A stretch of 23,643 nt of DNA from a virus: the UHGV virus genome UHGV-1377030; one strand, written 5' to 3'. Shown here piece by piece: positions 2,767 to 14,518 of the stretch. Made by a program: the position numbers and the translations under genes. A model generated the notes under the pieces. That model searched no databases. It was not told the origin of the DNA and saw nothing but the letters and a program-made list of their open reading frames with translations. Within the stretch, counting starts at the first letter, position 1, and every line of letters begins with the position of its first letter.

Positions 2767-3042
2767 ATGTCGATGTACACAACCGCCCAGCTGCTGGCGG
2801 CAAATGAGCAGAAATTTAAGTTTGATCCGCTGTTTCTGCGTCTCTTTTTCCGTGAGAGCTATCCCTTCACCACGGAGAAAGTCTATCTCTCACAAATTCC
2901 GGGACTGGTAAACATGGCGCTGTACGTTTCGCCGATTGTTTCCGGTGAGGTTATCCGTTCCCGTGGCGGATCCACCTCTGAATTTACGCCGGGATATGTC
3001 AAACCCAAGCACTTAGCATGGCTTTCTGAGGCTTTCGTGTAG
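2767..3042 (+). pseudogene. E: Major capsid protein E, 5' fragment truncated by the island insertion
   Basis: MSMYTTAQLLAANEQKFKFDPLFLRLFFRESYPFTTEKVYLSQ...TPGYVKPKH matches the lambda gpE N-terminus up to about nt 3012; the frame then reads 10 unrelated codons (LAWLSEAFV) and stops at 3042. The rest of E resumes at 13730. Confidence 0.85.
3002..3011. repeat. Left copy of 10-bp direct repeat (putative attL core)
   Basis: aacccaagca; identical copy at 13728..13737. Lambda-homologous E sequence ends here. Confidence 0.55.
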
Positions 3043-3139
3043 TTGCTGGTTTTTACACTTAATCTTTTGATAATAAAGAATAAATTTATCTGGCGCTTTC
3101 ACTGAATTTTCCTCGTTATCTGTGTGTTGCAATCATCTC

Positions 3140-3160
3140 TGTATTGCAGCTTGTATTGCT
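3140..3160. repeat. Tandem direct repeat tgtattgcagc / tgtattgct (putative integrase arm-type sites, left end)
   Basis: tgtattgcagc (3140..3150) and tgtattgct (3152..3160); a near-identical pair occurs at 13632..13652 in the same orientation. Confidence 0.45.
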
Positions 3161-3174
3161 TTTTGGGGCTAAAA

Positions 3175-4410
3175 ATGGCTGGCGAGAACAAACTGAGCGA
3201 CAAAGCGCTTAAAGGATATCTGGGGAAACCCAGAGAAAAGCAGATCACCATTGCTGATGGAAAGGGGCTTTCTATTCGTGTGAGTACTAAAGGGGCTGTG
3301 AGCTTTGTTTTCTTCTACAGGTTAGCAGGTGGCCGGGCTGCTCCGGTCTGGCTAACGTTGGGTAAATATCCTGATATGTCACTCAAACAGGCAAGGGAAA
3401 AGCGCGACGAGTGCCGTGGTTGGTTGGCTGACAAACGTGATCCGCGTATCCAGATTAAGATTCAGGCTGAAGAACGCTTAAAGCCGGTCACAGTGGAGGA
3501 TGCACTAAATTACTGGTATGAAAATTACTGTAAGGTGCGTCGTAAAACTCATGCTGTAACGCTTGGCAGATTTCGAAAGCATATCTTTCCCTATATCGGT
3601 CATTTGCCCGTAAATGACACTCACCTATATGAATGGCTGGACTGTTTTGACCGAATTAAACGTAATGCACCAGTTATGGCGGCGTATGTTTTTTCTGACA
3701 CTAAATTAGCTCTTCGTTTTTGTCGGGTACGCCAGTACGCGACGTGTGATGCTTTAAAGGATTTGCGCATGAGTGATGTGGGGCAGATTGCAGGTAAGCG
3801 GGATCGGGTTCTGGATGAAGCCGAACTCGGCCAGCTCTGGAAGGCAATTTTTGTCGAGCCTGATTTAAAACTAATGTCTGAATACACGCGAAAAATGTTT
3901 GTGCTTTGTACAGTATTTGGATGTCGAATGAGTGAAGCCCGATTATCAGAATGGAGCGAATGGGATCTCGAAAGTTGGGTTTGGACTGTACCAAAAGATC
4001 ACTCAAAAACTGGTGTTGAAATCGTCAGACCAGTACCTGAAATTCTACGACAGTGGGTAACGGATGTTCACGAAGAGACAAAACATACTGGTTATGTGCT
4101 GGGAAGTCTGCGAATTAGAGAAAGCGTAAGCAAGATTGGGGGGAAAATCGGTAAACGTTTGGGCCATGAAAAACAATGGTCACTACACGACCTTAGAAGA
4201 ACGCTATCTACTCATCTAAGTGATCTCGGTGTTGAATTTTATGTAGTAGAACAACTGTTAGGCCATGCGCTACCTGGCGTGGCAGGTGTTTACAACCGGA
4301 GTAAGTTTATGGCTAAAAAACTGGATGCTCTGGAACTCTGGACTACATATCTCAATAGCATCGCAGGTGCTGATTCAAAAGTGACGATCCTCAAACAAAA
4401 GGTTGGTTAA
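3175..4410 (+). CDS. int: Tyrosine recombinase / integrase, P4-type (N-terminal arm-binding domain plus catalytic domain)
   Basis: ATG at 3175 (MAGENKLSDKALKGYLG...) in the 3124..4410 ORF. N-terminus resembles the P4-like integrase arm-binding domain (DGKGLSIRVSTKGAVSFVFFYRLAG...LGKYPDMSLKQAREKRDE); the C-terminus carries HDLRRT, LLGHA and a VYNRS tyrosine region typical of tyrosine recombinases. Start at 3124 is an alternative. Confidence 0.85.
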   Translation: MAGENKLSDKALKGYLGKPREKQITIADGKGLSIRVSTKGAVSFVFFYRLAGGRAAPVWLTLGKYPDMSLKQAREKRDECRGWLADKRDPRIQIKIQAEERLKPVTVEDALNYWYENYCKVRRKTHAVTLGRFRKHIFPYIGHLPVNDTHLYEWLDCFDRIKRNAPVMAAYVFSDTKLALRFCRVRQYATCDALKDLRMSDVGQIAGKRDRVLDEAELGQLWKAIFVEPDLKLMSEYTRKMFVLCTVFGCRMSEARLSEWSEWDLESWVWTVPKDHSKTGVEIVRPVPEILRQWVTDVHEETKHTGYVLGSLRIRESVSKIGGKIGKRLGHEKQWSLHDLRRTLSTHLSDLGVEFYVVEQLLGHALPGVAGVYNRSKFMAKKLDALELWTTYLNSIAGADSKVTILKQKVG

Positions 4411-4411
4411 C

Positions 4412-4639
4412 ATGAAAAAAATGGCAATTGTTGATAAAAAGGGTCTGGAGTACATTCCTAACATTGACCGAATGATCCGTGAGAAAGAATGTCGGGAGCT
4501 AACCACTCTTGCGAACAGCACACGCTGGAAGCTGGAGAAGGAAGGAAAATTTCCTAAGCGGATCAAGATTGGTTCCACTGCTGTTGCATATCGTCTTTCA
4601 GAAGTGCAGGCATGGATTCGAGGTGAGTGGGTAGTTTAA
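4412..4639 (+). CDS. alpA: AlpA-like phage transcriptional regulator / excisionase-like HTH protein
   Basis: MKKMAIVDKKGLEYIPNIDRMIREKECRELTTLANSTRWKLEKEGKFPKRIKIGSTAVAYRLSEVQAWIRG; short MerR/AlpA-type HTH protein immediately after int with tight spacing (int stop 4408..4410, ATG 4412). Confidence 0.75.
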   Translation: MKKMAIVDKKGLEYIPNIDRMIREKECRELTTLANSTRWKLEKEGKFPKRIKIGSTAVAYRLSEVQAWIRGEWVV

Positions 4640-4664
4640 ATTATCTCAGAATAAAATATTATGA

Positions 4665-4700
4665 ATTACTGATTTGAGAATTTGTACTCAAATCAGTAAT
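4665..4700. terminator. Perfect 14-bp inverted repeat hairpin between convergent genes (bidirectional terminator candidate)
   Basis: attactgatttgag (4665..4678) and ctcaaatcagtaat (4687..4700) with an 8-nt loop, in AT-rich context between the alpA stop and the stop of the minus-strand membrane protein gene. Confidence 0.5.
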
Positions 4701-4708
4701 AACATTCT

Positions 4709-5245
4709 TTATAAGAGATTAAATCCAAATAAAGAGTAATCATATACCGGGGTGCATTGCATTCCACTGAATATGCTGATGTTTTTTTCTGTTTCTATCC
4801 TTTTTTCAATAAGTTGTTGTATATTTTTACAGTACAATTTGTGTGTGATGTTATTATCGTAAGCCTGATATAGCAACGTCAATGTTGACGCTAGGAAACA
4901 TACAGATAAAATTAAAATAATATATGCAGTTTTTTTATTTTTTGTCCATGATCTATTTGTTTGTGAAATATAAAGAATTCTGAGGTGGATAATGGTGAGA
5001 GACAATAGCAGGCCACTCAATAAAATAAGTATTGGGTTTGCGTATTTTATTAATGGTTGAGAGCAAAAAACTATTATAGCTCCTGTGACTGCGTATGAGA
5101 AAAAGGAGTAATTAAACTTCTTACTCCTTCTCTCAAGTATTTTAATTTCATCTTGTGTGGGGGTTTTAGATGCCTCTAATATAAGTTTATTGAATGTTTC
5201 TGTTATCTTGTTTTTTGTGTTTGTGGCTATTTTTTTTAGATTCAT
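4709..5245 (-). CDS. Hypothetical membrane protein (about 3 predicted TM helices), AT-rich cargo gene
   Basis: 178-aa ORF with hydrophobic stretches (FFSYAVTGAIIVFCSQPLI, ILILLSGLLLSLTIIHLRILYI, AYIILILSVCFLASTLTLLY), a GGGAG-like SD upstream, and strongly AT-rich codon usage unlike its neighbours. No family recognised. Confidence 0.5.
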   Translation of the reverse strand: MNLKKIATNTKNKITETFNKLILEASKTPTQDEIKILERRSKKFNYSFFSYAVTGAIIVFCSQPLIKYANPILILLSGLLLSLTIIHLRILYISQTNRSWTKNKKTAYIILILSVCFLASTLTLLYQAYDNNITHKLYCKNIQQLIEKRIETEKNISIFSGMQCTPVYDYSLFGFNLL

Positions 5246-5559
5246 AGCATTCTAACTCCCTTAACTTATTTATTACTTTCTCTTTATGATAAGAGAGGGG
5301 AATGACTTGGTAAAGTGATTTGTCATTAATAATGATAATCCTTGCGATAAATATTTCTGCAAGTTATTTATCTGTTTGTTGCTATCTTGTTAAGCGTTGG
5401 GTGTGGTTTATATTTGGAGCGACTTTATTTAATCGTGATTTTATGGATTTATATTTATATCCTGTAAGATAAGCGCATGTTAGTTTAGGAGTAGTGTCAG
5501 ATAAAATTATTCGGAGTAGAACTACCTTTTCTGTTTATTGCCAGTATTTACATAGCAAT

Positions 5560-5586
5560 GCGCCGTAGTTACTCACATCACGGCGC
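5560..5586. terminator. Stem-loop downstream of the minus-strand regulator gene
   Basis: gcgccgt (5560..5566) pairs with acggcgc (5580..5586); lies just 3' of the stop of the 5596..5898 gene on its strand. Confidence 0.3.
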
Positions 5587-5595
5587 TGATACTAA

Positions 5596-5898
5596 TTATT
5601 CAGATTCTTTGGCTTTACGCCGCTGGAGTTCTTCACGAGCGACGGCTACGAGTTGCCCGATTTCCTCCGCTGCCTTGATGCCGATTTGTTCGACCTTAGC
5701 TAAGGCATCCAGTGAAGACACGAGGGGATTTTCTCCGCTTCCTTCTGCCTGGCGGCGGGCGATCTCACCGCGCATGGCGGTTACTATGAATCCGGCGTTG
5801 CTTTCGCCGTCCAGTTTTACGGATTCCATGCCCTCCATAACATCGTGGGGAACCCTGATCGTTGTCATTTGCGATTTTGCATTTTTGTATACAGACAT
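5596..5898 (-). CDS. Putative small transcriptional regulator (repressor-like; possible ribbon-helix-helix N-terminus)
   Basis: 100-aa ORF divergent from the replication operon. N-terminal MTTIRVPHDVMEGMES resembles the beta-strand of RHH (Arc/CopG-like) DNA-binding proteins. The start could instead be the internal Met at 5868. Confidence 0.45.
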   Translation of the reverse strand: MSVYKNAKSQMTTIRVPHDVMEGMESVKLDGESNAGFIVTAMRGEIARRQAEGSGENPLVSSLDALAKVEQIGIKAAEEIGQLVAVAREELQRRKAKESE

Positions 5899-5914
5899 AG
5901 TTAATCACCAATTT

Positions 5915-6025
5915 GTTATGTGTATATCACTATACACAAAAGTGAGATATAAAAACACTTGCAATGTATATCACCACAATATAATGTATATCTCACATTA
6001 TGGTCGCTATGTATCTCACAATGAT
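5915..6025. promoter_or_regulatory. Divergent promoter/operator region with four direct copies of TGTATAT(C)TCAC-like motif plus an inverted copy
   Basis: tgtatatcac (5921..5930), tgtatatcacc (5965..5975), tgtatatctcac (5985..5996), tgtatctcaca (6009..6020) and inverted gtgagatat (5942..5950), all within the 208-bp gap between divergent genes. Confidence 0.5.
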
Positions 6026-6106
6026 CGATTCATAAAAACGACGAAACCCGGCAGTGCGCGAACACTAACCGGGCTTCTAACCAAACCGTTAAACGAGGTA
6101 ACTATT

Positions 6107-6472
6107 ATGGCTGGAACACAGCATACCCAAACTCACCCTAAATTTATATACATCTTTCTGGCGCTACATCGCGATCGCATAGCAGATGGAGCAACTACGG
6201 TACATGTAGCCGCTGACACGCTGGTTGATGCCCGCAAGATGGTTAAGGAGATGGGCTATACTGCGGCTTTCTGGAAAGGGCGGGAAGAAAACACGCTGTT
6301 TATTCAGAAATGTGAAAACAATTTCCTCTGGCGTTTTATCGCCCTGAGTACGACACAACCGCGCGTGATTACCATCGAGGCCACCAGCGAACAGGAAGCC
6401 CGCCAGCAATCCCCAACTGGCTGCGTGATGATATTCGCCGCCCGTATTCGTCAGGAGGTGTGCCATGAATGA
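6107..6472 (+). CDS. Hypothetical protein (first gene of island early/replication operon)
   Basis: ATG at 6107 preceded by a GAGGT SD; the longer 5558..6472 ORF would run antisense through the regulator gene, so it is trimmed. No family recognised. Confidence 0.5.
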   Translation: MAGTQHTQTHPKFIYIFLALHRDRIADGATTVHVAADTLVDARKMVKEMGYTAAFWKGREENTLFIQKCENNFLWRFIALSTTQPRVITIEATSEQEARQQSPTGCVMIFAARIRQEVCHE

Positions 6473-6689
6473 TCTTTATTTTAAAGTGCTGACACATGCT
6501 GAAAACGCGCTCGTTTGTGGCAAAAATATGCGAGAAATCTTATCAACCTGGCTTGATGGGACAACAAATGCGGAACACGATGAACGGGATGCTAATTTAG
6601 CTGGAGCGTTAATTACGTTACTTGATCCTGTCATCAAAGAGCTGGATGAAGCTATAAAAATACACGATCAGAGCTATACCGAAGAATAA
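6465..6689 (+). CDS. Hypothetical protein
   Basis: 74-aa ORF; its ATG overlaps the upstream stop (ATGA coupling) and is preceded by an AGGAGG SD. Confidence 0.5.
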   Translation: MNDLYFKVLTHAENALVCGKNMREILSTWLDGTTNAEHDERDANLAGALITLLDPVIKELDEAIKIHDQSYTEE

Positions 6690-6691
6690 AA

Positions 6692-6979
6692 ATGAAAAAT
6701 AAATTTTCTGGCTTTATTGCTAGCGGTCAAGCTCATTCAAAAATCAGCCTTGGGGATATTTTCAAAGATAGCTATGGCTATCGGGTAAAGATTATTTCGG
6801 TTGATGATCGCCGTGTCCCTTATTTGCGTGATGGTTATGATTTTGAATGTGTTATGCCGCGTCAGCAGTTCGAAAGAGATTTCATTCTGGTAAAAAATTG
6901 CAAGACAGATAATCAGAGGCGTGCCGCAGGCTATATCCGCAAAATTCGGGCAATGTTAGTTGCCGGAGGTAATAAATGA
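6692..6979 (+). CDS. Hypothetical protein
   Basis: 95-aa ORF starting 3 nt after the previous stop; operon context. Confidence 0.45.
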   Translation: MKNKFSGFIASGQAHSKISLGDIFKDSYGYRVKIISVDDRRVPYLRDGYDFECVMPRQQFERDFILVKNCKTDNQRRAAGYIRKIRAMLVAGGNK

Positions 6980-7158
6980 AACGTGCTCCGAACTTAAAAT
7001 ACCAACCGCGCGACAAAATGACAGAAGTCATCATTTTTGCTGGCAGTGATGCCTAGAGCCATGCAAAAGAATGGAATGAATGGGCGGGTAAGCATATTGC
7101 AGCAGATGATACACCACCAGTAATTCTGGGTACGGAACAACTGGAAAACCTGGATGAT

Positions 7159-8796
7159 ATGCAAATTATCGATGAAGGCCGTCATTATGTGCGTGTTTAT
7201 CGTGCCGGAAAGATTGCAGAGAAAAATCTGACGAAGGTTGCGACATTACTTGCTATTGCAGGCGTAAAGGAAGCACGTTGTTACCGTAGCTTTGTTGATC
7301 GAGAGCCTGAAGACTGGACTCCGCGCCTTGTCGGCCTAAAAGCTGAAGCGGAGCATGGGGAAAGTCTGGTGATTGAACTGCCAGTGAAGAAGGCTGAGCG
7401 CAAAAATGACGAGCGTGCTTCATCTTTGGCGTTGAATCAGATGGGGGCCAGCCAGCGCGGTGAAGTTCTCCTTGCACATTACGGCGGCGAACTGGCAATC
7501 AATGCCGACTCTGACACCGTTCATCATTACAACGGCGTTGTATGGGAGCCGGTTCAGGATAAAGAGTTACAGCGTGCTATGGCGCAGATTTTCATTGATG
7601 CGGAGATCAGCTATTCGCAGAACGCTATTAAATCGGCGGTAGATACCATGAAGTTAAGTTTGCCTGTAATGGGGAATACAGCCCGTAACCTGATTGGATT
7701 CAGTAACGGGGTATTTGATACCAGAACTGGTAATTTTCGGGAGCATAACAAAAACGACTGGTTGTTAATTGCCAGTGAATTACCTTTCAGCCCACCAGCA
7801 GAGGGGGAAACGCTGGCAACACATGCGCCGAATTTCTGGAAGTGGTTGCGCCGTTCGGTGGCTGAGAATGACCGCAAGGCAGATCGCGTACTGGCGGCAT
7901 TATTCATGGTGCTGGCGAACCGGTACGACTGGCAGTTATTCATTGAGGTAACAGGGCCGGGGGGAAGTGGTAAAAGTGTGATGGCGGAGATTTGCACCAT
8001 GCTGGCGGGTAAGGCTAATACAGTATCAGCAAGCATGAAGGCGCTGGAAGATGCAAGGGAACGTGCGTTAGTGGTTGGCTTTTCGCTGATTATCATGCCG
8101 GATATGACCCGCTACGCTGGTGATGGGGCAGGGATTAAGGCCATTACAGGCGGTGACAAGGTGGCAATTGACCCGAAACACAAAGCCCCCTATTCAACGC
8201 GTATTCCGGCAGTAGTGCTGGCGGTTAACAATAACGCCATGTCATTCAGTGACCGCAGCGGGGGGATCTCACGTCGTCGGGTGATATTCAATTTTTCGGA
8301 AGTTGTACCGGAGAACGAACGCGATTCGATGCTGGCGGAAAAAATAGAAGGTGAGCTGGCGGTAGTGATTCGTCATCTGCTTACAAGGTTTGCTGATCAG
8401 GACGAAGCCAGACGCCTGTTATATGAGCAGCAGAAATCTGAAGAAGCACTGGCGATAAAGCGAGAGGGGGATTCGCTGGTGGACTTCTGCGGTTATCTCA
8501 TGGCATCGGTAATGTGTGATGGCCTGTTAGTGGGTAATGCTGAAATTGTGCCATTCAGCCCACGCAGGTATCTCTATCATGCCTATCTGGCTTATATGAG
8601 GGCACATGGGTTTGGTAAACCTGTAACACTGACGCGCTTCGGTAAAGATATGCCGGGGGCAATGGCGGAATATGGCAGGGAGTATATGAAACGGAAAACG
8701 AAGCACGGTTTGCGTTCAAACGTGACCCTGACGGAGGAATCAGAAGACTGGATGCCATCATGTGTATCGGTCACTAATGACGATAGCAAAAATTAA
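7159..8796 (+). CDS. Phage/plasmid primase-helicase, P4 alpha-like (D5 N-terminal-like region plus SF3 P-loop NTPase)
   Basis: Walker A GPGGSGKS in TGPGGSGKSVMAEICTMLAG, a downstream hydrophobic-acidic Walker B-like stretch (LVVGFSLIIMPDM), and overall resemblance to satellite/PICI primase-replicase proteins. Gene is followed directly by an iteron array. Confidence 0.8.
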   Translation: MQIIDEGRHYVRVYRAGKIAEKNLTKVATLLAIAGVKEARCYRSFVDREPEDWTPRLVGLKAEAEHGESLVIELPVKKAERKNDERASSLALNQMGASQRGEVLLAHYGGELAINADSDTVHHYNGVVWEPVQDKELQRAMAQIFIDAEISYSQNAIKSAVDTMKLSLPVMGNTARNLIGFSNGVFDTRTGNFREHNKNDWLLIASELPFSPPAEGETLATHAPNFWKWLRRSVAENDRKADRVLAALFMVLANRYDWQLFIEVTGPGGSGKSVMAEICTMLAGKANTVSASMKALEDARERALVVGFSLIIMPDMTRYAGDGAGIKAITGGDKVAIDPKHKAPYSTRIPAVVLAVNNNAMSFSDRSGGISRRRVIFNFSEVVPENERDSMLAEKIEGELAVVIRHLLTRFADQDEARRLLYEQQKSEEALAIKREGDSLVDFCGYLMASVMCDGLLVGNAEIVPFSPRRYLYHAYLAYMRAHGFGKPVTLTRFGKDMPGAMAEYGREYMKRKTKHGLRSNVTLTEESEDWMPSCVSVTNDDSKN

Positions 8797-8804
8797 ACTT
8801 ATGG

Positions 8805-9040
8805 AATAACTGTTCACCACTGTTCACCCTGTCATAAATATCTTTTATATCAGTATATTATAGGGTGAACAGTTATTTATGAACTGTTCACCAAACTATT
8901 CACTGTTCACCTTTTTGATTGTTTATTGAGCTTCAAGGGTGAACAGTGGTGAACAGTTGGTGAATAGTTTTTGTGAAACTGTTCACCCATTAACATTATG
9001 AATTAAAAGAGAAAATATCAAAAGGTGAACAGGTGAAGGG
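8805..9040. repeat. Iteron array, putative island replication origin
   Basis: About 10 copies of CTGTTCACC or its complement GGTGAACAG in both orientations: 8810..8818, 8820..8828, 8864..8872, 8884..8892, 8903..8911, 8938..8946, 8948..8956, 8959..8967 (degenerate), 8979..8987, 9024..9032, in AT-rich non-coding DNA just 3' of the helicase gene. Confidence 0.65.
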
Positions 9041-9083
9041 TTAAAACGCAAAAATTTTAATTTACTGCTGTGAGATAAAGCCT

Positions 9084-9329
9084 ATGACAGCGAAGCACAC
9101 AAAAAAATCACAATCGCACGCCCTTGATTTGACGGAACACTGGTTAAGGGTGTCGATAAAAATCATCGACCGCAACGCCGGGGAAGGATACGCGAAAGCA
9201 CATCCCGAACTGATTAGCGCATTCATGACAACGGCGGCTGCAAACTTTGCCACTCTGACCGAACGGGAGATTGCTGAAGCGGAGGAAGTGACAACAATCA
9301 ATATTAAGTCCGGAGAGCAGGCAGCATGA
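9084..9329 (+). CDS. Hypothetical protein
   Basis: 81-aa ORF; its stop overlaps the start of the next gene (ATGA). Weak SD. Confidence 0.4.
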   Translation: MTAKHTKKSQSHALDLTEHWLRVSIKIIDRNAGEGYAKAHPELISAFMTTAAANFATLTEREIAEAEEVTTINIKSGEQAA

Positions 9330-9775
9330 CGGCGCAAATATCAGTTTACGGGCGGTTGGTGGACGACCCGCAGACAAAACAGACCAGCAAGGGCACCCCC
9401 ATGACGCTGGCGCGTATGGCGGTATCACTGCCCTGCAGTCAGTCGGATGACGGTCAGGCGACGATGTGGTTATCTGTCCTGGCGTTTGGCAGACAAGCCG
9501 ACGCGCTGGCAAAGCATCACAAAGGCGAACTCCTGAGCGTGGCGGGTAATATGCAGGTGAGCCAGTGGACTGGACAGAACGGTGAAACGCGGCAGGGCTG
9601 GCAGGTTATCGCAGACAGCGTAATCAGTGCGCGAACGGTGCGACCGGGCGGCAAAAAAGGTCAACAGGGTCAGGCTACTGACGCACTGAACAGAGCAAAA
9701 CAACAGGCAGATCAGCAAGGAAGCCATCCACCAGTGGGAGATAATGAGCAATGGGGAGATGATATTCCGTTTTAA
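9326..9775 (+). CDS. Single-stranded DNA-binding protein-like (divergent SSB with acidic C-terminal tail)
   Basis: 149 aa ending in ...EQWGDDIPF, the characteristic SSB C-terminal tail (DDDIPF); a Gly/Gln-rich linker precedes it. Confidence 0.6.
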   Translation: MTAQISVYGRLVDDPQTKQTSKGTPMTLARMAVSLPCSQSDDGQATMWLSVLAFGRQADALAKHHKGELLSVAGNMQVSQWTGQNGETRQGWQVIADSVISARTVRPGGKKGQQGQATDALNRAKQQADQQGSHPPVGDNEQWGDDIPF

Positions 9776-9783
9776 ATATTGCC

Positions 9784-9808
9784 AATAAAAAAGGCCGGAA
9801 AAAAATAA
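9784..9808. other. Palindromic hairpin after the SSB-like gene
   Basis: gccggaaaa-aaataaa-ttttccggc perfect palindrome; terminator or operator, function unclear. Confidence 0.3.
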
Positions 9809-9992
9809 ATTTTCCGGCATGCTACATAAATCCCGACCAAAGGGAGTGAAGATATTAACACTAATTATCCGCGCTGGAGTTGTTATCCCAAAACTTTATA
9901 CAACATTGCACTCGGTTGCATGTATTCGCATGACAAATATCGGTGATAGCATATATCCACAATTATTTTTAATGAATGCAAAGAGGATGCGT

Positions 9993-11033
9993 ATGGTTGA
10001 TTTATATTCGCCTACCCAGCTTGTACAGGTGGTTAATGCTGTAGATGTACAAAAACAACTAAATGCGTTGTTTACCAGTTTGTTTTTTACTCGCTCGGTA
10101 ATGTTTGAATCGCGCGATATTATTCTTGATACAATCGACGATCCAAATATCCCAATTGCAGCGTTTTGTTCTCCTATGGTAGGTAGTAAAGTTTCACGTG
10201 ACGAAGGGTACGAATCAAAAACAATTCGTCCAGGCTATATGAAGCCGAAAAGCAGCATTGATCCAAATAAGTTAGCTGTGCGCCCTGCTGGTGTATCACC
10301 TGAGCAATACAATGCTTTTGGAGCGCGTAATATTAAAGTTAAACAGGCGATTGTAAATCAGGCTAAAGCTATTCGTGCACGTATTGAATGGTTTGCCGTT
10401 CAGGCAATCACAACGGGGAAAAATATCATTGAGGGCGATGGTATTGAACGTTATGAGCTGGACTGGAATATAAAACCACAAAATATCATCACTCAGTCTG
10501 GCGGTACTGAGTGGTCAGGTAAGGATAAAGAAACTTTTGATCCAAATGATGATATTGAGAGCTACGCAGAATTTAGTGAGGGCGTCACTAATATCATCAT
10601 TATGGGCGGTAATGTATGGAAGAAATACCGTTCATTCAGAGCGATAAAAGAGGCTCTGGATACCCGTCGTGGTTCTAATTCCGAACTGGAAACGGCCCTT
10701 AAAGACCTTGGTGATTCGGTGAGTTTTAAAGGGTATATGGGCGATGTTGCGATTGTTGTATACAGCGGGCGTTATACCGACGAGGACGGAACTGAAAAAC
10801 ATTTCCTTGATCCTGATTTGATGGTGCTTGGCAATACGGCTCTTCAGGGGATTGTCGCCTATGGCGGTATTCAGGATCCGGAGCTAATCCGAATGGGGCT
10901 GACTAAAGCCGAACTTGCACCGAAAAACTATATTGTGCCTGGTGATCCGGCTATTGAATATGTGCAGACACATTCAGCACCACAGCCAATACCGGCCCGC
11001 ATCAATCGTTTTGTTACCGTTCGCATTGGCTAA
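9993..11033 (+). CDS. Island-encoded major capsid protein homologue (lambda gpE-like, full length)
   Basis: ATG at 9993 with an AGAGGA SD 5 nt upstream. MVDLYSPTQLVQ... aligns with the gpE N-terminus, and the C-terminal half is clearly homologous (ITQSGGTEWS, LDTRRGSNSELETA, GDVAIVVYSG, MVLGNT, GDPA), visible even at nucleotide level. Confidence 0.85.
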   Translation: MVDLYSPTQLVQVVNAVDVQKQLNALFTSLFFTRSVMFESRDIILDTIDDPNIPIAAFCSPMVGSKVSRDEGYESKTIRPGYMKPKSSIDPNKLAVRPAGVSPEQYNAFGARNIKVKQAIVNQAKAIRARIEWFAVQAITTGKNIIEGDGIERYELDWNIKPQNIITQSGGTEWSGKDKETFDPNDDIESYAEFSEGVTNIIIMGGNVWKKYRSFRAIKEALDTRRGSNSELETALKDLGDSVSFKGYMGDVAIVVYSGRYTDEDGTEKHFLDPDLMVLGNTALQGIVAYGGIQDPELIRMGLTKAELAPKNYIVPGDPAIEYVQTHSAPQPIPARINRFVTVRIG

Positions 11034-11042
11034 GGGGGAGCA

Positions 11043-11384
11043 ATGGCTACTCATTACACTGAACTCATGGCTGGCACTGAAGCACTGGTGACTACGCTGG
11101 GGATATTTTCAGCTAATAAAGGGGTAATTCCTGCATTTACGCCACTGATGCAGGAAGATGCAACAGGTGCACTGGTGGTATGGGATGGTTCGAGCGTAGG
11201 TAAAGCGGTTTATGTTTCCGCTGTACAAATCGACACCGCGAAAAAAACACAGGCTCAGGTCTATAAGACAGGTGTCTTAAATGTTGATGCTCTGAACTGG
11301 CCTGAGTCTGTAAAAGAACTGTCAGTAAAGATTGCAGCGTTTGTTGGCTCAGGTATTTCTGTTCAGCCGCTGGCTCGTGTGTAA
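11043..11384 (+). CDS. Island-encoded head decoration protein homologue (lambda gpD-like)
   Basis: 113 aa with strong SD (AAGGGGGAG). TPLMQEDATGALVVWDGSSVGKAVYVSAVQ...FVGSGISV parallels gp[30 protein letters not shown]...FAGTAISIV; similar length. Confidence 0.7.
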   Translation: MATHYTELMAGTEALVTTLGIFSANKGVIPAFTPLMQEDATGALVVWDGSSVGKAVYVSAVQIDTAKKTQAQVYKTGVLNVDALNWPESVKELSVKIAAFVGSGISVQPLARV

Positions 11385-11395
11385 AGGGGGATACA

Positions 11396-11779
11396 ATGCA
11401 GAATGATTACAATGACCTTAAGCCACTTGCCGAAATGATGTACCCGAATCCAGCTGTAGAGGAATTAAAAGCTATCGCTGACAAAATGTGTTTAAGCGAG
11501 CGCCTTGTTGATATGAATCAGGTGATGGAAATTACAACCCTGAGTCGGCGTACACTGCTAAACCTTGAGGCTAGTGGAGAGTTCCCGGAGCGTGTGCAGG
11601 TTACGGAAGGGCGTAAGGCCTGGTATTTAAGTGAAGTGATCGACTGGATAAATAATATTCCTCGCGCTTCTGAATATTGCCGCGTACCTGTCCCAAAAAA
11701 GCCAGATGCGGCGCTATGCCTCAAGATTGAGCGTGTACGCCGCAATGCACGGGATGGTCGCTATAAGCTGATTGGTTGA
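11396..11779 (+). CDS. Small HTH DNA-binding protein (AlpA/MerR-like winged helix), candidate cos-binding or packaging-redirecting protein
   Basis: 127 aa with strong SD. Central segment MEITTLSRRTLLNLEASGEFPERVQVTEGRKAWYLSEVIDWINN has AlpA-like HTH architecture; gene sits directly upstream of the island cos site. Confidence 0.55.
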   Translation: MQNDYNDLKPLAEMMYPNPAVEELKAIADKMCLSERLVDMNQVMEITTLSRRTLLNLEASGEFPERVQVTEGRKAWYLSEVIDWINNIPRASEYCRVPVPKKPDAALCLKIERVRRNARDGRYKLIG

Positions 11780-11832
11780 TGAAATTAGGGCCCGCTCTGG
11801 CTGGCGGGTCCTTTCCGGCGATCTGACAGGCT

Positions 11833-12000
11833 ACGGGGCGTCAGGCGCGCAGTTTTTTGCTATTTGTGAAAATTTTCCTGTTTAAGGCGTTTCCGTTCTT
11901 CTTCGCCGTAACTTAATGTTTTTATTAAAAACACCCCCTAAAAAGAAAGGAAACGACAGGTGCTAAAAACAGGCTTTTTGGCCTCTGTCGTTTCCTTTCT
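11833..12000 (+). other. Lambda-type cos site carried by the island (cosN-like plus cosB R3, I1 region, R2, R1)
   Basis: Sequence from ctacggggcg... through gcgtttccgttcttcttcg (R3-like, 11888..11905), agaaaggaaacgacag (R2-like, 11944..11959) and ctgtcgtttcctttct (R1-like, 11985..12000) closely parallels the left end of lambda DNA as I recall it. The R-site region is near-identical; the cosN segment differs at several positions. Confidence 0.75.
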
Positions 12001-12345
12001 CTGGTTTTGTTGCCATCCGTCGCGGTCTATCACCAGAAAAAATCTTATCCCTGAGTTGAATCAGGCCCTATTCAGAAGCGGCCAATAACGCGCCGCTAGC
12101 TTCACTTCATAGTTATGGCCTACTTCTGCGCCATTGCAATTGCTTTATGCGCCTTGATGGTGGAATATAGAGCAAGCAGTTTGCGAATAACAAAGTTTCA
12201 TATGTTTTTTGCTGTGTGGCTAGACAACTTTACAGCAGAGTTTTGTGTCAGTTCTTTATGTGTGCAAGCAAGCTTGAGGGGGAATTACTTCTGGCTGCAT
12301 CTTTGCTTAAGAACAGCAATAATTTAATCATAAGGAAATGTATAT

Positions 12346-12368
12346 AAGCCTGATTAAATTTCAGGCTT
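12346..12368 (-). terminator. Hairpin immediately 3' of the TIR-domain gene
   Basis: aagcctga (12346..12353) pairs with tcaggctt (12361..12368) around a 7-nt loop, 10 nt beyond the gene stop, in AT-rich context. Confidence 0.4.
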
Positions 12369-12377
12369 ATTGAAATG

Positions 12378-13520
12378 TTAACTCCTTATTAGAGAGTAAA
12401 TTCCATCCTCTTTAAGGAAGTCTATTACTTCAAAGAATGAGATAAAGAATTCCCAAGAACCAAAAGCATATGCATGAATTTCGTAAGGTGCAAAATGGAA
12501 TCTAAATCCATCACTATTTATTGTGAACGAGTCTAAGTTACTATCCATGATACCCGTTGCAAACGTACTAATGTCGTCCTCACTTGGTTTTTCACCAGTT
12601 TTCTCCCAAAATTCACGAGCTGATTCAGAGATTATTTTTTGTTTTATCTTATTAATCGCTTCTTGCTCTTTCCCTTCGGTAAATACATCCCATAAACTAA
12701 ATTTGTATGCGTAGTCATCCTTGGTTATTACGAAATTACTAGTTTCAAAATGACTGTTAGGGTGTGCTGCTCCCGCACCATACCAATGTACGGAATGAAG
12801 GATGCTCATAACATTTTCGTTACAGTATGAGATGTTATAACTTTCATTATAGGAACTAGTGTAAGTGTGTTTATATTCTTCATCCCAATATGGTGTTCCT
12901 GGCCATAGTGATGTGCGTTCAGAAAAAATATGTAAAGCCGCTTTTCCTGAAAAGTAATCACTAATGAGTTTTGCTGATTTCGGTAATGTATGGCTTTCAA
13001 TTCTTGGATATGCTATTTCAATTTCATGCCCTGGGATCTTGTTATATTCTTCCTTGAAAACCTCGCTGCTAAAGTTAAATGGCCCATAAGTGATACCTTG
13101 AGATATTTCAAGTTTTTGTTGCGATGCTGCTAATCTTAAAGATCTAGATAAAATGTCCCAACCATCATTTCTCTTAAAATCAATGAATTGGAGCTTGCTT
13201 GATATGTAGGCGGGTACTTCGCAATCATCAATAAGTAATGGTATCACGAACACATCATCTGGTTTGTAATACTTTAGTTTATCAATGGCGTCATTTATTT
13301 CGCGGCGAATATAACCATTTTTCTGAGTGCTCACTTTGCTAAGGATAAGGATTATCAAGTTTGAATTAGCGAAGTTTTTTTGGATTTCATAATCCCAGTT
13401 TACGCCAGCGGGTATATCTTTTACATCCATCCAAGGGGAATATCCTCCACTTTTTAGCCTTTCATAGATTTCTTCAGTTATCGTTTCATCTTCTTTTGCA
13501 TGAGCAAGAAAAATTTTCAT
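12378..13520 (-). CDS. TIR-domain protein with uncharacterised ~240-aa C-terminal domain (candidate anti-phage defence cargo)
   Basis: 380-aa ORF with an AAGGAA SD 6 nt upstream. N-terminus MKIFLAHAKEDETITEEIYERLKSGGYSPWMDVKDIPAGVNW...LIILILSKVSTQKNGYIRREINDAI fits the bacterial TIR pattern (K-I/V-F-L/I-S/A-H/Y start, W at box 2, S-x-x-S...E catalytic-type segment). Strongly AT-rich relative to island and phage genes. Confidence 0.75.
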   Translation of the reverse strand: MKIFLAHAKEDETITEEIYERLKSGGYSPWMDVKDIPAGVNWDYEIQKNFANSNLIILILSKVSTQKNGYIRREINDAIDKLKYYKPDDVFVIPLLIDDCEVPAYISSKLQFIDFKRNDGWDILSRSLRLAASQQKLEISQGITYGPFNFSSEVFKEEYNKIPGHEIEIAYPRIESHTLPKSAKLISDYFSGKAALHIFSERTSLWPGTPYWDEEYKHTYTSSYNESYNISYCNENVMSILHSVHWYGAGAAHPNSHFETSNFVITKDDYAYKFSLWDVFTEGKEQEAINKIKQKIISESAREFWEKTGEKPSEDDISTFATGIMDSNLDSFTINSDGFRFHFAPYEIHAYAFGSWEFFISFFEVIDFLKEDGIYSLIRS

Positions 13521-13631
13521 TGAATATTCCTTTATAATTTAACTAATTAAGTGAAGGAGGCTTTACTTGGCTGTGTTAGAAAAAATTCGGTTTGTTTTTT
13601 GTACGATGCCAAGAAGGCTTTTCCCTAACCA

Positions 13632-13652
13632 TGTATTGCAGCATGTATTGCT
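13632..13652. repeat. Tandem direct repeat tgtattgcagc / tgtattgct (putative integrase arm-type sites, right end)
   Basis: tgtattgcagc (13632..13642) and tgtattgct (13644..13652), matching the pair at 3140..3160. Confidence 0.45.
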
Positions 13653-13727
13653 ACGTAATTCTGCACCCTCTCATTTATAAAATAAATCTCTGTTAAATCA
13701 AGTATCTTTTTTCTATTTGACTCATGT

Positions 13728-13737
13728 AACCCAAGCA
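13728..13737. repeat. Right copy of 10-bp direct repeat (putative attR core)
   Basis: aacccaagca; lambda E-homologous sequence resumes exactly here. Confidence 0.55.
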
Positions 13738-14518
13738 TGAGGTGAATCCGCAGATGACCCTGCGTCGCCTGCCGGATGAAGATCCGCAGAATCTGGCGGA
13801 CCCGGCTTACCGCCGCCGTCGCATCATCATGCAGAACATGCGTGACGAAGAGCTGGCCATTGCTCAGGTCGAAGAGATGCAGGCCGTTTCTGCCGTGCTT
13901 AAGGGCAAATACACCATGACCGGTGAAGCCTTCGATCCGGTTGAGGTGGATATGGGCCGCAGTGCGGCGAATAACATCACGCAGTCCGGCGGCACGGAGT
14001 GGAGCAAGCGTGACAAGTCCACGTATGACCCGACCGACGATATCGAAGCCTACGCGCTGAACGCCAGCGGTGTGGTGAATATCATCGTGTTTGATCCGAA
14101 AGGCTGGGCGCTGTTCCGTTCCTTCAAAGCCGTCAAGGAGAAGCTGGATACCCGTCGTGGCTCTAATTCCGAGCTGGAGACAGCGGTGAAAGACCTGGGT
14201 AAAGCGGTGTCCTATAAGGGGATGTATGGCGATGTTGCCATCGTCGTGTATTCCGGACAGTACGTGGAAAACGGCGTCAAAAAGAACTTCCTGCCGGACA
14301 ACACGATGGTGCTGGGGAACACTCAGGCACGCGGTCTGCGTACCTATGGCTGTATTCAGGATGCGGACGCACAGCGCGAAGGCATTAACGCCTCTGCCCG
14401 TTACCCGAAAAACTGGGTGACCACCGGCGATCCGGCGCGTGAGTTCACCATGATTCAGTCAGCACCGCTGATGCTGCTGGCTGACCCTGATGAGTTCGTG
14501 TCCGTACAACTGGCGTAA
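13730..14518 (+). pseudogene. E: Major capsid protein E, 3' fragment (continuation of the gene interrupted at about 3012)
   Basis: PKHEVNPQMTLRRLPDEDPQNLADPAYRRRR...DEFVSVQLA matches lambda gpE from about residue 80 to the C-terminus. An in-frame TAA at 13727..13729 precedes it, so the fragment lacks its N-terminal part. Confidence 0.85.

Follow-up and report, generated by a model that had tools for sequence, protein, structure and literature searches.

Co-oriented octamer doublets in a capsid-gene phage satellite as probable arm-type sites of its own integrase

Which protein reads the matching tandem repeats that lie just inside both ends of the island, a phage satellite, in UHGV virus genome UHGV-1377030? 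The window, that is, the whole analysed stretch of 23,643 nt, contains TGTATTGCAGCTTGTATTGCT at 3140–3160 and TGTATTGCAGCATGTATTGCT at 13632–13652, both on the plus strand and identical at 20 of 21 positions, which bears out the pair, the positions and the shared orientation given in the initial annotation. There, the copies had been placed about 130 bp inside the left and about 80 bp inside the right junction, for which 129 bp (start of the left doublet) and 76 bp (end of the right doublet to the right identity block) were measured, and the left copy upstream of the integrase gene int, as is indeed the case. The annotation had furthermore read the repeats as arm-type binding sites of a tyrosine integrase. 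This reading is supported, at the level of sequence comparison, by a PF13356 domain in the encoded integrase (Int), by fixed distances to the recombination core, by covariation of the repeat unit with the Int N-terminal domain (N-domain), and by a parallel in phage P4. We consider it very probable that the doublets are the arm-type sites (P and P′) of the satellite's own integrase, to which the Int N-domain would bind. The argument requires the following features:

3140–3159, plus strand: P′ arm doublet, with units at 3140–3147 and 3152–3159, ending 15 nt before the int ATG (3175)
13632–13651, plus strand: P arm doublet, with units at 13632–13639 and 13644–13651 (12-bp period)
3002–3011, plus strand: left identity block AACCCAAGCA, 10 bp, crossover region (attL), found as direct repeat
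13728–13737, plus strand: right identity block AACCCAAGCA, 10 bp (attR), found as direct repeat
3012–3139, plus strand: P′ arm spacer from core to doublet, with a conserved core-proximal portion CTTAGCATGGCTTTCTGAGGCTTTC
13652–13727, plus strand: P arm spacer, variable save for the core-proximal TTGACTCATGT at 13717–13727
3123–3130, plus strand: candidate degenerate third unit, TGTGTTGC (GCGTTGCA in relatives)
3175–4410, plus strand: int, P4-family tyrosine integrase of 411 aa (Pfam PF13356 and PF00589)
3175–3459, plus strand: portion of int for the N-terminal arm-binding domain (residues 1–95), the proposed reader of the doublets (PF13356, covariation)

Each copy has the form TGTATTGC-N4-TGTATTGC, i.e., two 8-nt units with a period of 12 bp. 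A scan of the whole window that allowed up to three mismatches returned these two doublets and nothing else, while the expectation from 100 dinucleotide-preserving shuffles was 0.00. The lone octamer, scanned in the window with one mismatch, showed no enrichment (21 found, 23 expected), and since lone octamers thus occur at about the chance rate, it is the doublet and not the octamer that carries the information. That rate is also what could be cited for regarding the two copies as a chance match or a functionless leftover duplication. However, no such pair is expected in the shuffles, and in related islands the octamers stay invariant in 45 right arms with unrelated surroundings and are kept down to about 50 % Int identity. 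The probability of this explanation is next to nil, and the comparative sequence data already refute it.

In the linear island, the left doublet starts about 132–133 bp past the centre of the left block, and the right doublet ends 81 bp ahead of the centre of the right block. Upon circularization, the core centre accordingly is flanked by one doublet 81 bp upstream and the other about 132 bp downstream, with 234 bp between their starts. The arm unit TGTATTGC differs from the surroundings of the core (TTGACTCATGT-AACCCAAGCA-CTTAGCATGG), in which TTGACTCATGT at 13717–13727 is likely a core-type Int site. The element at 3123–3130 is kept as GCGTTGCA(A/G) in the groups inserted into capsid and ClpP genes; it is possibly a third unit but could equally be a −35-like element. 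Some relatives carry an extra single arm unit (L074 at 12680–12687, L084 at 9955–9962, L141 at 9954–9961, L109 at 9894–9901), located either between doublet and int ATG or some 70 bp ahead of the doublet; in the window, only the degenerate element occurs.

The island spans approximately 3012–13737 (10.7 kb), with a G+C content of 31–52 % as compared to 54–62 % in the flanks, and interrupts a lambda-like major capsid gene E at codon 81/82:

2767–3011, plus strand: 5′ part of capsid gene E, 81 codons, attB-derived side of attL (RefSeq: partial major capsid protein)
13738–14518, plus strand: 3′ part of capsid gene E (RefSeq: partial major capsid protein)

The translation of the split gene follows the lambda gpE N-terminus up to ...PGYVKPKH, and the frame resumes, again as in gpE, at EVNPQMTLRRL.... 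The match of intact capsid genes in other E. coli genomes to the window stops at base 3011. The window itself is 100 % identical to E. coli AR_0013 (NZ_CP032204.1), in which the interrupted gene E belongs to a lambdoid prophage, with a head-decoration gene on one side and FI on the other. This int region is present in 174 of 5426 complete E. coli genomes, and the int product matches a protein cluster of 1098 member sequences at 100 % identity. The two copies of the block are not always the same: in several of the related loci L001–L071, attL and attR disagree at block positions 2 and 5 and in some cases also at 8, as where a left AACCCAAGCA is paired with a right AGCCGAAGCA. Given these differences, strand exchange is probably confined to the last ~5 block bases (AAGCA), or else mismatches are tolerated.

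Neither the motif nor this very island is new. Tommasini, Mageeney and Williams described phage-inducible chromosomal islands (PICIs) that are integrated in prophage late genes, i.e., helper-embedded PICIs (HE-PICIs), the founder of which, 11capE, occupies a lambda-like capsid gene and has an identity block of 10 bp (2023, NAR Genom Bioinform 5:lqad036; PMC10111431). Their "doubled motif" tgTGTATTGCantgTGTATTGCa, with two co-oriented copies at 81±2 bp upstream and 132±2 bp downstream of the attP centre, is the same object as the window doublets, whose distances of 81 bp and ~133 bp agree with the published values. Supplementary File 1 of that paper lists the island as Eco10186.11.E_Phage_cap_E_80 (CP032204.1/5242183-5231458, block aacccaagca). 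The element hence is a phage satellite of the HE-PICI type, site group E_Phage_cap_E_80, as judged from its late-gene insertion with a short block, its Gram-negative PICI gene order, and the authors' own listing. Because the same island and motif appear there, the present finding is a rediscovery as far as the sites are concerned. The authors left open whether the binder is the Int arm domain, AlpA, or an unknown protein, and the reading preferred here is thus one of three published options. According to the same authors, no other PICIs have the doubled motif, not even the closely related fis PICIs (PMC10111431). The comparison below departs from that account in two respects: fis PICIs do show doublets with other units, and the unit covaries with the Int N-domain, not with AlpA.

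As a further check, the initial annotation had named conservation of the repeats in related islands. Our capsid-gene set comprised 67 IMG/VR loci together with one Kosakonia and one Cedecea genome (Int 83–100 % identical). A scan of genome contigs with the single Int protein had yielded three loci only and an alignment-based scan of viral contigs mostly near-identical islands, while diversity came from an E. coli 'distant' blastn search and from a metagenome scan seeded with fis-type Ints. Both doublets are present in every capsid-gene locus that spans both ends. Across 45 distinct right arms, the octamers are invariant (with one AGTATTGC), the 4-nt spacer occurs in at least 16 variants, the cargo-side flanks are unrelated, and the arm spacer falls into several unrelated families. 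The distance from the start of the right doublet to GACTCATGTA nevertheless is 87–88 bp in all of them, and that from the left doublet to CTTAGCAT is always 128 bp (40 distinct left arms). This constancy of block and doublet geometry across relatives also supports the earlier view that both junctions belong to one element. At Int identities of merely 49–57 %, HE-PICIs at other sites keep TGTATTGC doublets as well, namely in a portal gene (L074), a ClpP/capsid fusion gene (L072), and a large-terminase gene (L073), as do L079–L094.

Two of these relatives show unusual arrangements. In L023, a single prophage contig includes the right end of a portal-gene island (2183–2202) followed, at a distance of 2.9 kb, by the left end of a capsid-gene island (5127–5146), and both satellites have the arm unit TGTATTGC. 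L072 (12514–24745) is an HE-PICI within the ClpP-protease/capsid fusion gene of what is apparently another PICI beside a tRNA-Ile gene, hence a satellite inside a satellite; additional single units occur close to the core in the right arm of this HE-PICI.

The right doublet faces a cargo gene, which raises the question of whether the repeats serve transcription:

12378–13520, minus strand: TIR-DUF3298 cargo gene in the variable region by the right arm (Pfam PF13676 and PF11738)

The doublets might be operators that take no part in recombination and through which an island or host transcription regulator controls int together with the right-end cargo. Such an arrangement would fit the location of the left copy immediately before int and that of the right copy, which precedes the start codon of the divergent TIR gene by 111 nt. 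It would also fit the orientation of the nearest cargo open reading frame (ORF): in 17 of 23 distinct flanks, this ORF is on the minus strand and directed away from the doublet, which places its promoter close to the arm. However, in the other 6 flanks the gene is on the plus strand and runs towards the doublet, and the distance between cargo and doublet varies from 2 to 925 bp, whereas that between doublet and core is fixed within 1 bp. Furthermore, the P′ doublet follows the core and not the int ATG (see below), and no host factor could account for units that vary in step with the Int N-domain of the element itself. An operator function of this kind is therefore extremely unlikely. The initial annotation had also placed the right copy in the presumed promoter region of the TIR gene, which holds for its position but not as a conserved meaning: because cargo gene, strand, and distance vary while the distance between doublet and core does not, the doublet is, on the available sequences, tied to the core and not to the cargo, and its place upstream of TIR is incidental. 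Sites for the host factors IHF or Fis were considered separately and rejected, as the unit varies with the element.

What, then, makes Int the candidate reader? The Arm-DNA-bind_3 domain (PF13356) was recognized in residues 7–93 (E=3.7e-19), and phmmer matched the Int N-domain to the solved arm-binding domains 3JU0 (E=2.1e-5) and 3JTZ. Further evidence comes from satellites of the fis site. A Klebsiella fis PICI, found via an Int homologue, lacks TGTATTGC but has doublets with the 12-bp period of HE-PICIs, GTATATCACTATGTGTATCACT immediately ahead of int and TGTATCACTGGATGTATCACT in the opposite arm; the doublet of a Yersinia fis PICI reads GGTGTAGTCTATGGTGTAGTCT. Fis-site doublets were located in L075 (7113–7134 and 17828–17847), in L077 (9954–9975), and, upstream of int, in L095–L150. 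The metagenome scan contributed 55 further loci. The exact doublet was not found at L129, L142, L147, and L148, with a mismatched version at L129 and L148, and each of the 61 loci used for the covariation analysis has a doublet of 12-bp period upstream of int. The units fall into the following classes:

class A: TGTATTGC
class B: TGTATCAC
class C: TGTATCAA
class D: TGTAGTC(T/A)
class E: TGTATAAA
class F: GTGGGGTAC
class G: GTGTAACTAT
class H: CTAGCCA

Three tandem units occur in L102 and four in L130. Matching copies in the other arm were found for classes B and G as well as for class E in L114. In the reconstructed attP, the doublets of HE-PICIs (capsid, ClpP, portal) and of fis classes B, E, and G alike are spaced 231–235 bp apart. 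The int-proximal doublet lies 130–132 bp from the core even in L141, where the int ATG is shifted 129 nt downstream; since the core distance is kept there, the P′ doublet follows the core and not the int ATG. Fis PICIs hence share the period and the geometry of the doublets while using other units, which qualifies the published statement that these are unique to HE-PICIs. A metagenome contig of the L114 locus (4288–4540) contains a right-arm doublet, a fis-type core, and a left-arm doublet in one stretch, 233 bp apart, and represents a class-E fis PICI that is either excised and circular or arranged in tandem.

The existence of several units made it possible to ask with which part of which protein the unit changes. 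Of the 59 distinct Ints compared, 52 came with an identifiable AlpA, and the N-domain was defined as residues 1–95. N-domain clusters (70 % identity) agreed with the unit classes at an adjusted Rand index of 0.96; the rest of Int reached 0.60 and AlpA 0.58 at best. The unit differs in none of 143 pairs with N-domains at least 80 % identical, but in 13 of 156 pairs with an equally similar rest of Int and in 75 of 222 pairs with an equally similar AlpA core. When the rest of Int was matched at 70–90 % identity, N-domain identity was 88 % for pairs with the same unit and 59.5 % for pairs with different units. Natural swaps point in the same direction. L132 and L141, with the units TGTATAAA and GTGGGGTAC, respectively, are 93 % identical in AlpA and 87 % in the rest of Int, yet only 62 % in the N-domain. 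The four HE-PICI site groups have one unit and different cores, with N-domains 63–72 % and the remainder of Int 42–50 % identical, whereas Klebsiella and Yersinia fis PICIs have different units and one core, with values of 60 % and 71 %, respectively. Moreover, 15 of the top 25 unit-informative Int columns lie in residues 1–95 (about 6 expected), clustered at 23–25, 30, 47, and 54–59; the alignment to 3JU0 and 3JTZ, together with general knowledge of the fold, suggests that these residues are on the β-sheet of the arm domain. Site specificity thus appears to follow the Int N-domain, in a correlative manner.

The most serious competitor for the doublets is AlpA:

4412–4639, plus strand: alpA, excisionase/transcription factor family (Pfam PF05930)

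AlpA could bind the doublets as an excisionase (directionality factor) and/or as an activator of int and neighbouring genes. Proteins of this type often sit on tandem direct repeats in att arms (e.g., Xis, TorI, Vis), and in the present island alpA directly follows int. The 2023 paper named AlpA as a possible binder and found it tightly conserved among HE-PICIs (PMC10111431). The covariation data, however, decouple AlpA from the unit: beyond the 75 of 222 similar pairs that differ, AlpAs of 93 % identity accompany TGTATAAA on the one hand and GTGGGGTAC or TGTATCAA on the other, and the AlpA helix-turn-helix is nearly identical among fis PICIs with different units, including those of Klebsiella and Yersinia. 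Conversely, the standard unit TGTATTGC goes with a diverged AlpA recognition region in the large-terminase HE-PICI (RRHRSLL versus NSTRWKL). In fis satellites, another gene intervenes between int and alpA, and the 15 nt from the left doublet to the int ATG are too few for a promoter in between on which an activator could act. We hence regard AlpA as a very unlikely reader of the doublets. A second AlpA-like gene of the island (11396–11779) was rejected as binder, as it is absent from the ClpP-site HE-PICI with the same motif.

Several points nevertheless weigh against assigning the doublets to Int. In column-wise mutual information, the N-domain shows no more than a modest excess (0.29 versus 0.25), and this measure is confounded by phylogeny, which is why pairwise and cluster statistics and the natural swaps were relied on instead. 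The 10-kb flanks contained no right-arm copy for class C, D, F, or H, probably because these islands are longer than that. In our literature search, no binding or recombination experiment on the doubled motif was found. Likewise, a promoter scan around the left and the right doublet gave no convincing sigma-70 promoter, which for the left doublet weakens a possible autoregulation of int (see below); we accordingly do not claim a mapped int promoter. Finally, the P′ doublet adjoins the DNA that codes for the N-domain, and part of the covariation could stem from linkage. A single linkage block, though, is ruled out by the order within attP, i.e., P doublet, core, P′ doublet, N-domain, catalytic domains: the P doublet, the P′ doublet, and the N-domain follow one pattern, and the core and the catalytic domains another. 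This mosaic argument draws on both-arm data for classes A, B, E, and G only.

The arm-site reading of the doublets gains further plausibility from known systems, foremost phage P4. Its attP arm repeats were reportedly first described by Pierson and Kahn in 1987. P4 integrates into a tRNA-Leu gene, the present island into a phage gene. The P4 GenBank record (NC_001609) annotates pairs of an "attP arm sequence repeat" at 4174–4151 and 3965–3942 with the core between them at 4097–4078. As in the island, an integrase of the same family is accompanied by two co-oriented pairs with a 12-nt period, one on each side of the core, and the int-proximal pair ends 15 nt before the int ATG. P4 differs in its unit (GGGGGCA instead of TGTATTGC) and in the spacing of the pairs (209 bp versus 231–235 bp). 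P4 furthermore has an additional copy in inverted orientation across the int start codon and a second one within int.

Phage lambda provides a more distant precedent. Lambda Int is heterobivalent, with an N-terminal domain for arm sites (P1, P2, P′1–P′3) that are distinct from the core sites. Neighbouring arm sites in tandem are separated by about one turn of the helix, and arm–core bridging builds the recombination complex. Unlike in the island, however, the N-domain of lambda Int is not of the PF13356 family, and its layout is 2+3 as opposed to the co-oriented, symmetric 2+2 found here. IHF-like or Xis-like sites could not be identified in the present island. For regulation, element KplE1 (CPS-53) is instructive, as its IntS arm-type sites overlap the intS promoter and Int was experimentally shown to repress its own gene (Panis et al. 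2010, PMC2951348). KplE1 resembles the island in that int lies beside attL and points inward, with arm-type P′ sites in the int upstream region, and differs in that TorI sites are interleaved with the IntS sites. Upon inspection, no doublet of 12-bp period was detected in the KplE1 attL/int upstream region, and this element is therefore an analogue for regulation only.

From the observed sites, their geometry, their conservation, and the covariation with the N-domain, we infer the following course of events. The C-terminal core-binding and catalytic domains of Int would recognize the crossover region around AACCCAAGCA, while the N-domain (residues ~1–95) would read the TGTATTGC units. Four units would presumably serve the four subunits of an Int tetramer, and the 2+2 arrangement at fixed helical phase would allow the arms to be folded back onto the core, thus building the recombination complex. 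Such an arm–core complex would control integration into and excision from the capsid gene of the helper prophage. As the left doublet directly precedes the int ribosome-binding site, bound Int probably would also lower int transcription, comparable to IntS of KplE1.

The remaining genes of the island are organized as in a Gram-negative PICI. The genes int and alpA are followed by a membrane-protein gene and a YlcI/YnfO-like gene on the opposite strand and then by an Icd-like gene, a DUF4222 gene, a D5-type primase gene, iterons, an SSB gene, and homologues of capsid protein E and decoration protein D. The right part comprises the second AlpA-like gene, a lambda-like cos region, and the TIR-DUF3298 gene on the minus strand, the product of which is likely an anti-phage defence protein. 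Between the cos-like region and the right doublet, the relatives have a cargo hot spot with at least 23 different flanks (right ends of L001–L071).

The D5-type primase gene (6976–8796) has an in-frame stop after codon 26 (…FAGSDA*) and is a pseudogene according to RefSeq; given this stop, the present copy of the island may lack replication of its own. Right after it, direct and inverted iterons CTGTTCACC cluster at 8795–9032 and most likely constitute the island's replication origin, as a candidate. Non-coding DNA at 11800–12010 is 90–93 % identical to unannotated regions of lambdoid phages, recalls lambda cos, and contains a 26-nt inverted repeat at 11944–12000; on these grounds, it is probably the island cos site, and a cos site has been reported for 11capE (PMC10111431). 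The island also has its own homologues of lambda capsid protein E and decoration protein D (9819–11384) while the E gene of the helper is interrupted. The island E homologue is an ORF of 404 aa, or 346 aa from the RefSeq start.

On the question left open in 2023, the comparative evidence favours the Int arm-binding domain over AlpA, and both the assignment of the binder to Int and the generalization beyond HE-PICIs appear to be unpublished. The doublets are not a peculiarity of HE-PICIs but one version of an architecture that is common to fis-site satellites and phage P4. We are slightly inclined to believe that, in the P4-like integrase clade of Gram-negative satellites, the arm domain and the 2+2 doublets form an exchangeable specificity module, with at least eight arm dialects on one scaffold of about 233 bp. 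As part of such a module, fis satellites may diversify the arm dialect, while helper-embedded satellites may keep one dialect and diversify the core. If this is true, co-resident or tandem islands could be insulated from each other's integrase. The natural domain swaps amount to a table of N-domain/arm pairs that could guide the design of orthogonal integrases and could help to explain how satellites competing for one attachment site avoid cross-excision.

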